Shown here: one piece after another, positions 27,501 to 33,616 of the stretch
How positions within the stretch are numbered: the stretch's first letter is position 1
How the letters are laid out: every line of letters begins with the position of its first letter
Source of the DNA: a virus
Lineage: Duplodnaviria > Caudoviricetes
Direction: 5' to 3' (one strand)
DNA: 64,000 bases
IMG/VR virus record: IMGVR_UViG_3300035703_002708
Notes under the pieces: generated by a model
Databases searched by the model: none
Seen by the model: the letters and a program-made list of their open reading frames with translations, nothing else
What the model was told of the DNA's origin: nothing
Translations under genes and position numbers: made by a program

Positions 27501-29843
27501 AAACGAAAGTTGCCATTAGTAATCCAAACTCCAAATGGGGAACTAACCTCACCATCCATAAAAATGATGTGGGATGAACCACTTATGATGTTTGAAAAAG
27601 AACCAGACAAAATGTTTATTGATTGGAGGTAATTATTTTATTATGAAAACAATATTAATCAAGGTTATATTCACATTACCATTTATGGTATTAGACATAA
27701 TTGTTTTACCCGTTCAGTTGATATATTGGATTTTTTCAGGTAAACTTTTAACGCCATTCACACAACAATTATGGGAAGCGGAGTAAAACCAAAAAATAAA
27801 CGAAAATGATAATTGAATTTCATAAGAACAAATTGGATGACCACGAATGGTGGTTTGATTTAGGTTTGGGTTATCAAAATACCGATTACTACGAATACAA
27901 AAAAGTATTCACCATAGGATTAGGTCTTGTAACAATTTATTTTAGATGGGGGAAACGATGACAGCAAAAGAAAGAGCAGAAGATTTGGTAAGTAAGTTTT
28001 TCTTCTTAACAGAAAATTTGGAAAATCAAAAAAAATGTGCTTTGACAACTGCGGACCAAATCATTTTGGAACAGTGTAAAAGTAGCGAAAAAAAAGATGC
28101 AAAATATCAAGATGAAAGATTGTCATATTGGTTTGAGGTAAAAAGAGAAATAGAAAATATATGAAAAAACAAACAGCAGTAGATTACCTGATAGAACAAT
28201 TAGAAGCGCCATGCAGAGGTATTCCATCTTTCATAATAGAAAAAGCAAGAGGAATTCAAAAAGAACAAATGAGATTGATATACGAAGGTATTTTACAAAA
28301 CGTGGGAACCTCAATCAAACAATCTGATTTACCAACATTTGAACAATACTATAATCGTTATTACGAAAATGAACCATAACCCATTCGGTCTCAAAGTAGG
28401 AGACACCGCAATTTTGGATAACCAAAGATGTGTAAAAATTATAAGTCAAACACCAAACGATATGTTTAGTGAAGTTAGGCCATTAGCATATTTCCTATCA
28501 ACAGAAGGAAAGTGGGAAAACTTGGACAATTATGAAGTTATGACAAACAGATTAACTCCATATTTCGGGACACATAAAGAACTCACAGTTAATAATGAGA
28601 TTTCAGATGAGGAGATACATAAAGCGGCAACCAATTATTCAAACTTTTATTATGAATTTAGAGCGGGTGCTCAGTGGTATAAAGAACAATTGAAAAACAT
28701 ATAACGAAACTTATGTATAAATCTTTCAAATTAACAAAACGACATAGTATAGCGTTTAATACTTTTCCTAAATCGGCCAAAAGTATCAAGACCAAAGTAC
28801 CTGCATATCACACAGGTATATGTAAATCAACGGATGAAATTAACCAATTTGATACTTATTTTTTTGTATTGGGTAGATTTAGAATAATGTGGTATGTTCA
28901 ACATAAACATAAATGTAGATTAACTAATGGGTAATAATAAACAAACGGCAGTAGAATGGTTAGAAAAAATATGTAATGATAGAGGTTATCATTTAATGGA
29001 AGACTATTTCAAACAAGCCAAAGCAATGGAGCGTGAGCAGATTGAAGAGGCTTATTATTCAGGAACTGCACAATTTGCAAATGACGCAAGGATAGATTAC
29101 CCTAAAACATCAGAAGAATACTACAACGAAACATACAAAGGAGGTTCAAATGAGTAAGATATTATGCTTTTTTGGTTGGCATAACTGGAGTACAACTTTA
29201 CAAGATTACTTAGATGAATATGGCACTTTGCCACTTGATGCTAAAATATCTTCAAAGTCAAAATGTTCAAGATGTGGCATAACATATAAAGGAGGTGAGC
29301 AATGAATAAACAAACAGCAGTTGAATGGTTAGAGAAAAAAATAAGTGACTTAGTGTCTGAGTATGTTTTAAAAAATTTATTTGAACAAGCCAAACAAATG
29401 GAGAAGGAGCAGATAATTGAATCCAATTACGATGGTCAGTCACTTCATGCGAAGTCCGTAACCAGTTTGATGATGAAAGATAATGCAGAACAATACTACA
29501 ACGAATTGTATAACAAATGAAACCCGAATATATAACTTGTGCGGCAATTTGGTATAAAGACCTACCAACTCAAACTTATCTACCAAAAAACATAGATAAG
29601 GGAATCGTTGTGTGTGGTCATAGACACAATAACTGTATTGATATTGTCAAAACTTTATCAGAGTTAAGGACCGTAAGATTTTCACCTGATGGAGTGGGTG
29701 AATCAATCCAAGGATTTATGACAAGTTATAATAGATTTGTGGATAGACAAGAAGCGATGGGAATCGCAAAAACAACAGGACAAATAGATGAATCAAAACT
29801 ATATAATCCAATGACAGGATTATTTTCAGAAGATATATATTAA
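24557..29843 (+). CDS. operon-like run of about 20 small hypothetical proteins with local paralog sets
   Basis: TATATTTG 24539-24546 at the head; ATGA overlaps; paralogs KEFxxYxQ...APTxxQAxRW (25131, 25528), KQTAVEWL (28161, 28927, 29302), and CAL..VDEII..YW..VK.EI (24557, 27946). Confidence 0.75.
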
Positions 29844-29849
29844 TTCTTA

Positions 29850-29881
29850 TTTGATTAGTTCGGAAATTATATATACATTTG
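29850..29881 (+). promoter_or_regulatory. Bacteroidota-type promoter of the + strand RNA operon (TTTG-N20-TACATTTG)
   Basis: Consensus match 9 nt upstream of tRNA-like RNA 1. Confidence 0.8.
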
Positions 29882-29890
29882 TGATGTAAT

Positions 29891-29999
29891 GGTCAGGTGG
29901 CGAAATGGTAGACGCATAGTGTTAGGTCTAATTAGACACGTTTGAAACAGAACTCCACTATTGTAGACGTACATACAGGTTCGAATCCTGTTCTGACCA
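29891..29999 (+). ncRNA. tRNA-like RNA 1 (class II frame, 34-nt expanded anticodon loop)
   Basis: Acceptor GGTCAGG/TCTGACC+A; D arm GCGAAATGGTAGACGC; stem ATAGTG/CACTAT; variable arm TGTA-GACG-TACA; T arm ACAGG-TTCGAAT-CCTGT; no encoded CCA. Confidence 0.8.
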
Positions 30000-30000
30000 C

Positions 30001-30214
30001 AATGAGTTAGAGATACTCAGCAGTCTTTGGTCCAAGACTCATTTAACAATGGACTCGCTCAAACCGGACAGCGGAACGCCGGTTCTTGGGGATAAAGGCG
30101 GCAGCACACCCCCTCCCAAGTAGTGTGGCTGTTTTAATGAGGGATGCCTCGGAGGTTTTTAAGAGAATAGAAAACCCAAATAACTACTCACCCGTAATCT
30201 CAAGGTGGGGAAAT
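30001..30214 (+). ncRNA. structured RNA(s) between tRNA-like 1 and 2
   Basis: GC-elevated chain of hairpins plus an H-type pseudoknot candidate (see findings). Confidence 0.55.
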
Positions 30215-30302
30215 GGTCAGATGGCGGAATTGGATAGACGCTACCCTATATTTGGGGGAGAGGTGAAAGAAACTCATACAGGTTCGAGACCTGTTCTGAC
30301 CA
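30215..30302 (+). ncRNA. tRNA-like RNA 2 (class II frame, degenerate anticodon arm)
   Basis: GGTCAGA/TCTGACC+A; GCGGAATTGGATAGACGC; CCCT-ATATTTG-GGGG; variable arm GAG..CTC; ACAGG-TTCGAGA-CCTGT. Confidence 0.75.
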
Positions 30303-30312
30303 CTATAACGCT

Positions 30313-30336
30313 CCTAAGATATATTTAGGTTTTCTT
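30313..30336 (+). terminator. weak intrinsic terminator closing the + RNA operon
   Basis: CCTAA-GATATAT-TTAGG followed by TTTTCTT. Confidence 0.5.
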
Positions 30337-30359
30337 ATATTTATATATAAAACAAAATT

Positions 30360-30608
30360 ATGGAACACGAAATGAGAAAATACATAGACACTTTCAAACA
30401 GAAACTAACTGAATCAGAAAACTTGAATATAACTGATGATATGTTTAGTTTTTCTGATATGATAGGATTCACAAGATGGATTCTTCAAGGTGATGATTTT
30501 GGTAATATAACACGTTATATTTACATAGAAACGAAAGATGATTTCATTGATGACGATGGTAATAGATACTCTTGGGAAGATTTATATAAGATATATCAGG
30601 AAAATTGA
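30360..30608 (+). CDS. hypothetical protein with LTESE leader
   Basis: TATTTAT 30338-30344 upstream. Confidence 0.65.
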   Translation: MEHEMRKYIDTFKQKLTESENLNITDDMFSFSDMIGFTRWILQGDDFGNITRYIYIETKDDFIDDDGNRYSWEDLYKIYQEN

Positions 30609-33268: not shown

Positions 33269-33338
33269 TAGTCAGGACAGGATTCGAACCTGCATCTCCC
33301 GTACCAATACGAGGCGTTACCAATTACGCCACCTGACT
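33269..33338 (-). tRNA. tRNA-like RNA 3 / pseudo-tRNA (anticodon ambiguous: TTG or TGG; 6-nt loop)
   Basis: AGTCAGG/CCTGACT+A; GCGT-AATTGGTA-ACGC; CTCGT-ATTGGT-ACGGG; GCAGG-TTCGAAT-CCTGT; 70 nt. Confidence 0.7.
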
Positions 33339-33394: not shown

Positions 33395-33503
33395 CAGTCA
33401 GGACAGGATTCGAACCTGTATGATAAGTAGTAAAGTTATGGAAGTGACAATGTACTTACTTATCTATTCACTTCTAGCGTCTAACCAATTCCGCCACCTG
33501 ACT
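33395..33503 (-). ncRNA. tRNA-like RNA 4 (class II frame, extended anticodon arm)
   Basis: AGTCAGG/CCTGACT+G; GCGGAATTGGTTAGACGC; GAAGTGA/TCACTTC stem around 20 nt; ATAA/TTAT variable arm; ACAGG-TTCGAAT-CCTGT. Confidence 0.8.
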
Positions 33504-33585: not shown

Positions 33586-33616
33586 CAAAGATAATATAAA
33601 TTATCATATTGACAAA
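33586..33616 (-). promoter_or_regulatory. Bacteroidota-type promoter of the - strand RNA operon (TTTG-N19-TATCTTTG)
   Basis: Consensus match with no ORF downstream, only structured RNAs. Confidence 0.8.

Follow-up and report, generated by a model that had tools for sequence, protein, structure and literature searches.

The question raised by this locus is what occupies the spacer between two tRNA-like genes (tRNA-like A and tRNA-like B) in the window, by which we mean the whole 64,000-nucleotide stretch of viral DNA analysed here. The initial annotation described the spacer as GC-richer than its flanks and almost fully pairable, and interpreted it as an undescribed non-coding RNA. Our analysis confirms the observation overall and supports the interpretation. 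The GC content, measured in 100-nt windows, is 47-58% in 30000-30200 against 25-35% in the AT-rich flanks. A search of Rfam 15 at gathering score, proposed in that annotation as a check on novelty, finds the flanking tRNAs only and nothing over 30000-30214, and a scan of 29700-30500 at E<=10 gives no Rfam match overlapping 30000-30214. As a single sequence the spacer folds no better than its shuffles (minimum free energy z = +0.51 for the RNA alone and -1.15 with both flanks), and the case for an RNA therefore rests on its relatives. Support for the fold is thus comparative and not thermodynamic, the shuffle test of minimum free energy being neutral either way. From the evidence set out below we consider it likely that 30000-30214 (+) encodes a stable non-coding RNA of ~215 nt, which belongs to a family outside Rfam found in large T4-like phages of fresh water within arrays of tRNA genes. 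The features discussed are collected in Table 1.

Table 1. Features at the locus and elements of the predicted RNA fold (positions in the window)
Feature	Position	Strand	Description
Bacteroidota-type promoter-like site	29850..29881	+	TTTG, about 19-20 nt, TACATTTG; pattern match only
tRNA-like A	29891..29999	+	Rfam tRNA 41.3 bits; about 32-34 nt extra or in place of the anticodon loop
Structured RNA	30000..30214	+	215 nt; from tRNA position 74 of tRNA-like A to the base preceding tRNA-like B
P1 hairpin	30003..30019	+	TGAGT (30003-07) / ACTCA (30015-19)
Kissing helix, 5' half (proposed)	30010..30014	+	GAGAT, in P1 loop
Pseudoknot 1, P2	30022..30055	+	AGTCTT (30022-27) / AAGACT (30034-39)
Pseudoknot 1, P3	30022..30055	+	GGTCC (30029-33) / GGACT (30051-55)
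Pseudoknot 2, P4	30056..30084	+	CGCT (30056-59) / AGCG (30070-73)
Pseudoknot 2, P5	30056..30084	+	AACCGG (30062-67) / CCGGTT (30079-84)
Pseudoknot 3, P6	30085..30131	+	CTTGGGG (30085-91) / TCCCAAG (30114-20); internal loop ATAAA
Pseudoknot 3, P6b	30085..30131	+	GGCGG (30097-101) / CCCCC (30109-13)
Pseudoknot 3, P7	30085..30131	+	hairpin loop CACAC (30105-09) / GTGTG (30123-27), after invariant GTA linker
P8 hairpin	30139..30150	+	GAGG (30139-42) / CCTC (30147-50), loop GATG
P9 hairpin	30154..30176	+	GGTTTT (30154-59) / AAAACC (30171-76)
P10 hairpin	30187..30209	+	CTCACC (30187-92) / GGTGGG (30204-09)
Kissing helix, 3' half (proposed)	30197..30201	+	ATCTC, in P10 loop
tRNA-like B	30215..30303	+	89 nt, ARAGORN 'tRNA-Asn(att)'; tRNA-Leu-type scaffold
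Weak AU-rich hairpin and U-run	30313..30336	+	possible transcript end; -3.9 kcal/mol, z = -0.41

A 3' motif common to the two flanking tRNA-like genes is found in more than 120 IMG/VR contigs, and seven of the loci with this motif have full-length look-alikes of the spacer, all seven lying directly between one tRNA 3' end and another tRNA 5' end. The conserved 5' hairpin word TGAGWDAGAGRTACTCA occurs in at least 120 additional contigs. A covariance model (R1) built from 16 sequences gives at least 96 matches (79 distinct) in 95 uncultured viral contigs, scoring 37-228 bits and nearly all full length; the spacer of the window scores 219 bits over 30000-30212. The strand (+) is set by U-G pairs in helix P10, where UG is present in 52 of 62 sequences. 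Across the family the RNA has been kept through ~70% sequence divergence. Five carrier contigs are 181-309 kb in size, two of them rated complete; each has a single copy of the RNA and all five have a T4-type major capsid gene (Gp23 family, PF07068, E 1e-62 to 1e-67). DNA runs from seven further studies (fresh water, drinking water, sediment) contain at least half of the sampled words of the stretch. Among GenBank phages there is no match to the RNA at E<=1e-5 or E<=10, and in bacterial and archaeal genomes (596 Gb) a 17-mer has at least 120 matches, which is about the chance level, none of those listed being a family member by HMM. Protein-coding neighbours are not conserved, the best protein family being present in 16 of the 95 loci only, and PHROG matches within the window are uninformative. 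The family is absent from Rfam 15; the 2023 IMG/VR motif catalogue (PMC10690425) was compared by description only. In that study of the same IMG/VR collection, Fremin et al. reported ~8,500 candidate structured RNAs, including tRNA-like and other intergenic motifs, which by their description are 29-151 nt long. The wording 'undescribed ncRNA' is upheld for Rfam 15, GenBank phages and the T4 RNAs rnaC and rnaD, none of which gives a match; the family has at least 79 distinct covarying members.

The predicted fold of the RNA is a 5' hairpin (P1) followed by three consecutive H-type pseudoknots (P2/P3, P4/P5 and P6-P6b/P7) and 3' hairpins (P8-P10). In a model-based alignment of the 79 distinct sequences, 90.9% of the cells of ten nested helices are paired and double changes are found at 36 of 41 pairs, so that the covariation among homologues suggested as a check is present. 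When P2, P4 and the loop-loop helix discussed below are added, in an alignment of 62 sequences, 91.5% of cells are paired and 40 of 56 pairs have double changes; the alignments used for both counts had been fitted to the model. For the ten nested helices none of 500 shuffles equals any of five fold measures, and with partners slid by 1-3 columns 44-53% of cells are paired. An alignment made by MAFFT alone misplaces P4-P7 (49-68% paired), and for this reason model-based alignments were used instead. As the model leaves loops unaligned, the crossing helices were tested independently of any alignment, the duplex energy of each sequence's own segments being compared with that of permuted partners. 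In this test cognate strands are distinguished for P7 (z = -10.2), P4 (z = -8.4) and P2 (z = -5.7), with z = -18.6 for the positive control P3 and values from -1.3 to +1.0 for three negative controls. All three crossing pairs have the H-type order 1-2-1'-2' with compensating changes.

Seven of the eight stems named in the initial annotation (P2, P5, P6, P8, P9, P10 and the crossing P7) are kept with compensating changes in homologues, and the H-type pseudoknot proposed there is borne out as pseudoknot 3 (P6/P7), although there are three pseudoknots and not one. The eighth, a long-range AATGAGT/ACTCATT stem, is not conserved and was rejected: it overlaps and conflicts with the AAGACT strand of P2, and its 3' strand is partly deleted in many homologues, while TGAGT pairs locally with ACTCA in P1. 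P1 itself, the pseudoknots P2/P3 and P4/P5, the P6b extension and the loop-loop complementarity go beyond what had been described.

In P1, 98% of cells are paired and divergent members have double changes to AU and UA; its local fold has z = -2.5 and its 7-nt loop, TAGAGAT, is nearly invariant in the family. In pseudoknot 1 all five pairs of P3 have double changes (93-94% paired), as do four of the six pairs of P2 (89% paired), and the third loop is A-rich and 11 nt long. In pseudoknot 2 double changes are present at all six pairs of P5 (92-96% paired), and the outer pair of P4 is CG in 19 sequences, GC in 15 and AU in 11. As read from the sequence, the loop lengths of these two pseudoknots are classical, at 1/0/11 nt and 2-3/2/5-7 nt. 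By the same reading pseudoknot 3 departs from the classical form, since a linker of 3 nt (GUA) follows a P6-P6b stem of ~10 bp. P6 and P6b covary across the family, and P7 is formed by at least 20 different complementary strand pairs, including GACAC/GUGUU, GGUUC/GAACU, AAUCCU/AGGAUU and CCAACAC/GUGUUGG; C30109 is counted in P6b as well as in P7. A 3-nt linker cannot span a straight 10-bp P6-P6b stack, so that the stem would have to turn sharply at its internal loop, ATAAA. We therefore suggest that the conserved five-base AUAAA bends the P6-P6b stem. Three of the four pairs of P8 have double changes, the family switching between GGGAUGCC and GGUAAGAC. P9 is 88-89% paired, with alternation of UA and GC at one pair, and has a variable loop that is enlarged in some members. 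P10 is 94-95% paired with double changes at five of six pairs, and its loop includes an invariant AATCTCA. Two further ideas considered from the sequence, a U-tract/P9 triple helix and a similarity to preQ1-type pseudoknots, were dropped because they lacked support.

Some members of the family are 260-290 nt long (L137, L130, L202, L124, L156, L186, L122, L054, L164, L229 and L190) owing to insertions of 50-80 nt, which are located in pseudoknot 2, the P8 loop or the P9 loop. This suggests that these are peripheral sites where additional sequence is tolerated.

The pattern of substitution also bears on whether the locus encodes a protein. An open reading frame of 80 codons with a TTG start is present at 30086-30328, and its translation would offer a coding explanation of the 3' part of the spacer. 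This frame, however, runs on through tRNA-like B, and an open frame over the 3' 60% of the RNA is kept in only 11 of 75 members. Substitutions in the helices are compensatory, and the homologues frequently differ by indels of 1, 2 and 4 nt. We give a coding function practically no credence.

Conservation in the RNA is highest in the loops of P1 (AAGAGAU) and P10 (..UAAUCUCA.), and the words GAGAU and AUCUC within them, in hairpins at opposite ends of the molecule, are exact complements. The GAGAU/AUCUC helix is selected unprompted by RNAalifold. At its four inner pairs, among the 79 distinct sequences, A is changed to G in five and C to U in two, wobble pairing being kept in each case, and at the end pair one of the 79 sequences has a U-U mismatch. 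Within the family (79 distinct sequences) this helix lacks any true double compensatory change, and for this reason two loops that were each kept for a third partner would look alike. A search for more diverged copies yielded one sister copy only (L168/L355). In this copy (L168:2438-2642) both loops have been replaced, by AACCGC and GGGGU, and four of the five positions can pair. These loop data favour a loop-loop contact, within one molecule or between two alike. We think it reasonably probable from the complementarity that GAGAU in P1 pairs with AUCUC in P10 of the same molecule, which would close it into a compact body.

The same pairing between molecules would give head-to-tail dimers, rings or larger RNA-only bodies, and would make the RNA a small counterpart of ROOL and GOLLD. 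The placement of GAGAU and AUCUC in hairpins at opposite ends, and their position in the most conserved parts, would suit such an arrangement. GOLLD (RF02032) and ROOL (RF03087) are likewise orphan, ornate RNAs, of phages and prophages, with pseudoknots and conserved kissing loops, often beside tRNA islands. They multimerise by kissing loops, and some of these loops were initially taken for intramolecular tertiary contacts (PMC12286853). However, the present data fit a contact within one molecule equally well, and the RNA is 3-4 times smaller than GOLLD or ROOL and has no detectable similarity to them, the RF02032 and RF03087 models giving no match to it at gathering score or at E<=10. Multimers, which have been shown for GOLLD and ROOL, are only a possibility for the structured RNA, and we regard intermolecular pairing as unlikely. 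Closure of a single molecule through its two end hairpins is the reading that we prefer.

How the RNA would be released is suggested by the precision of its junctions with tRNA genes. In the window, tRNA-like A has acceptor, D and T arms of the tRNA-Leu type and its discriminator, A29999, directly precedes the RNA, while tRNA-like B has a mismatched anticodon stem and the loop ATATTTG. Both have their acceptor and T arms in common with two minus-strand copies, at 33269-33338 and 33395-33503 (-). The initial annotation placed the RNA between two tRNA mimics. This holds for the window, where the neighbours are tRNA-Leu-shaped scaffolds, but the mimics do not define the layout, because most members of the family are flanked by ordinary tRNAs of varying identity. 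A T-loop motif is found just upstream of the RNA in 63 of 75 distinct contexts, and in 52 of the 75 it lies exactly 12 nt before the first base. This 12-nt interval is made up of the remainder of the T stem, the acceptor strand and the discriminator, and the RNA therefore starts at tRNA position 74. Its start is usually CAA, at the site where CCA would sit. ARAGORN calls a tRNA that ends at the RNA start in 37 of the 75 contexts and one that begins 0-8 nt past the RNA (mostly 2-5 nt) in 43; a tRNA is called upstream or downstream in 59. The junctions are thus those of a tRNA-punctuated RNA, at position 74 upstream and just before position 1 downstream. Ten or so different tRNA identities are found on each side, which indicates that the RNA is not associated with any single tRNA.

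In tRNA maturation an RNase Z-type cut is made after the discriminator, and RNase P cuts at the 5' end of the next tRNA. The RNA would be co-transcribed with its tRNA neighbours, in the window from a Bacteroidota-type promoter. A host tRNA 3'-end nuclease cutting after the discriminator would then generate its 5' end, and its 3' end would come from RNase P cleavage at the start of the following tRNA; both freed ends would adjoin hairpins. The earlier suggestion that the ends are cut out by tRNA-processing enzymes is supported by this geometry, seen in 52 of 75 upstream and 43 of 75 downstream junctions. Co-transcription with tRNAs, followed by release through a tRNA 3'-end nuclease and RNase P, is in our opinion quite likely.

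A host-type promoter and a terminator had been proposed as the transcription signals of the RNA. The promoter is plausible: the motif is present, ends 9 nt upstream of tRNA-like A, and belongs to a set of 17 sites of the form TTTG-N18-21-TAnnTTTG in the window, compared with 4.0 +/- 2.0 in shuffles, a further example being 33586-33616 (-). This excess of Bacteroidota-consensus motifs suggests a Bacteroidota host. The proposed terminator did not hold up, as the hairpin is no better than chance and is not picked up by a terminator scan.

Traces of the RNA are found in lake-water metatranscriptomes. Four studies contain contigs identical to 30012-30193, 30036-30186, 30035-30194 and 30015-30168, all four of which lie wholly within the RNA. 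In other contigs the conserved ends match and 81 other letters replace the 75-nt middle (joint 30053/30129; X16, X17), which indicates that these contigs come from relatives present in the same lake RNA libraries. Neither the flanking ORFs nor the middles peculiar to tRNA-like A and B are covered by any metatranscriptome contig, and the uncovered part is not to be taken as evidence. The contigs are assemblies and are silent on ends, strand and amount. Their ends fall at family-conserved segments, where an assembly graph would branch, and so do not map the ends of the RNA. We take these contigs as a hint of RNA accumulation.

The layout could also mean that the RNA has no function in trans and is a structured spacer, needed for the processing, folding or stability of the tRNA precursor and then degraded. 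The constant position of the RNA inside tRNA arrays, with exact junctions, is what such a spacer would have, and since the flanking tRNAs vary, the RNA behaves as a movable module of the array. A spacer would not, however, need three covarying pseudoknots and two invariant loops over ~70% divergence. Most adjacent tRNAs in the same arrays are a few bases apart without such an element, and contigs of the RNA occur in RNA libraries. We find it quite improbable that the RNA is a spacer of this kind. Its position upstream of other genes, together with the existence of pseudoknot-rich aptamers, might also suggest a riboswitch or another cis-acting leader, here controlling either the tRNA-like gene that follows or the ORF at 30360. 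Against this, the downstream neighbours vary among phages, with ten tRNA identities, and there is no expression platform: the RNA is followed after 2-5 nt by a tRNA and not by a terminator or ribosome-binding site. A cis-acting leader is hardly credible on these grounds. The reading that we retain is that of an RNA set free from the tRNA transcript.

Small non-coding RNAs in the tRNA cluster of a T4-type phage have precedents in T4 itself, namely rnaC (species 1, 139 nt) and rnaD (species 2, 119 nt). The rnaD gene adjoins the 3' end of tRNA-Arg, as the structured RNA adjoins its upstream tRNA. Differences are that the structured RNA is nearly twice as long and has three pseudoknots, and that it lacks the T-arm and acceptor-like module found at the end of rnaC. 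The T4 tRNA-Arg/rnaD/rnaC region gave no match with R1, nor with nhmmer with filters off. The structured RNA thus shares with rnaC and rnaD its location, in a T4-type tRNA cluster beside a tRNA, and does not share detectable homology; it falls into the same category of RNA, in the same type of virus, and is unrelated by the tests used. The roles of T4 RNAC and RNAD are still unknown (PMC3014915, PMC9697503). In T4 (AF158101, L234 2054-2172 (-)), the CCA of tRNA-Arg is immediately followed by rnaD, whose first bases are AAUGAG. UGAGUAAG and UAAUCU occur within it, and words of this set are characteristic of P1 and the P10 loop in the present family as well. Because there is no profile or covariance-model similarity to rnaD, these shared words may be due to chance.

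Tandem H-type pseudoknots beside tRNA-shaped RNA are also known from PK2-PK4 of tmRNA and from the 3' end of tobacco mosaic virus, with its three upstream pseudoknots. In those RNAs the pseudoknots and the tRNA-like part are in one molecule, whereas the geometry of the present locus points to removal of the tRNAs by cleavage. The structured RNA also differs from tmRNA in having separate end hairpins (P1 and P10), no ARAGORN call and no conserved frame. It could nevertheless be a very divergent form of a known RNA, that is, of T4 species 2 RNA (rnaD), of a tmRNA pseudoknot string or of a reduced RNase P RNA. The T4-like nature of the carriers, the position, AAUGAG start and shared words of rnaD, and the several H-type pseudoknots of tmRNA are compatible with such an origin. 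R1 and an unfiltered HMM, however, find nothing in the T4 region, and the relatives of rnaC and rnaD are limited to close kin of T4 with at least 80% identity. ARAGORN reports no tmRNA, the Rfam models of tmRNA and RNase P give nothing at E<=10, and neither an acceptor nor a T-arm module forms part of the RNA itself. It is very improbable, in our judgement, that the RNA is a disguised member of one of these classes. We regard it as an RNA of well-defined fold that belongs to a new family inside a category already known yet unexplained.

As to function, we tentatively put forward, as a possibility, that the RNA acts in trans and not as a cis regulator, perhaps as a stable RNA that binds a protein of the translation or tRNA machinery, of host or phage origin, and serves as its scaffold or decoy. 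A bolder proposal takes in the tRNA-Leu-shaped scaffolds, which occur together with the RNA in 44 of the 95 loci. The RNA might then be the smallest self-assembling phage RNA, forming rings or cages via GAGAU/AUCUC, and with the scaffolds might constitute an RNA-only toolkit directed at the tRNA and translation machinery of the host. We consider this decidedly unlikely.

Since the work on T4 in the 1970s it has been known that phage tRNA clusters hold small stable RNAs of unknown role. The family described here provides a large and diverse data set for this old puzzle, with a 215-nt fold fixed by covariation, exact junctions and traces in RNA libraries. A compact and pseudoknot-rich RNA that is probably closed by a loop-loop contact should be tractable for structure determination and for pull-downs, and any partner found would show what use is made of the non-tRNA part of the 'RNA islands' of large phages. 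RNA engineering employs tRNA-flanked expression cassettes, and the exact tRNA-RNA-tRNA arrangement of the family is also a natural version of these.

The tRNA-Leu-shaped scaffolds form a family of their own, with 162 distinct copies in the loci analysed (L001-L120) and the window. The acceptor, D arm and T arm of tRNA-Leu type are kept in these copies and the discriminator is A in 146 of the 162; a hypervariable region replaces the anticodon and variable arms, and the total length is 74-169 nt. Of the 162 copies, 131 are not recognised as tRNAs by ARAGORN, and as many as nine lie within 5 kb (L013). The copies resemble natural tRNA scaffolds with variable cargo. The sister copy of the structured RNA at L168:2438-2642 (+), found also at L355:399-603, scores 54 bits and shares a tRNA array with a normal copy; in it the 5' hairpin has been replaced, and it has its own terminator-like hairpin at its end. 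Two further stretches of the L168 contig (2018-2150 and 2251-2363), each ORF-free, longer than 100 nt and situated amid tRNA genes, match neither the family nor tRNA, and may be other RNAs carried by these arrays.
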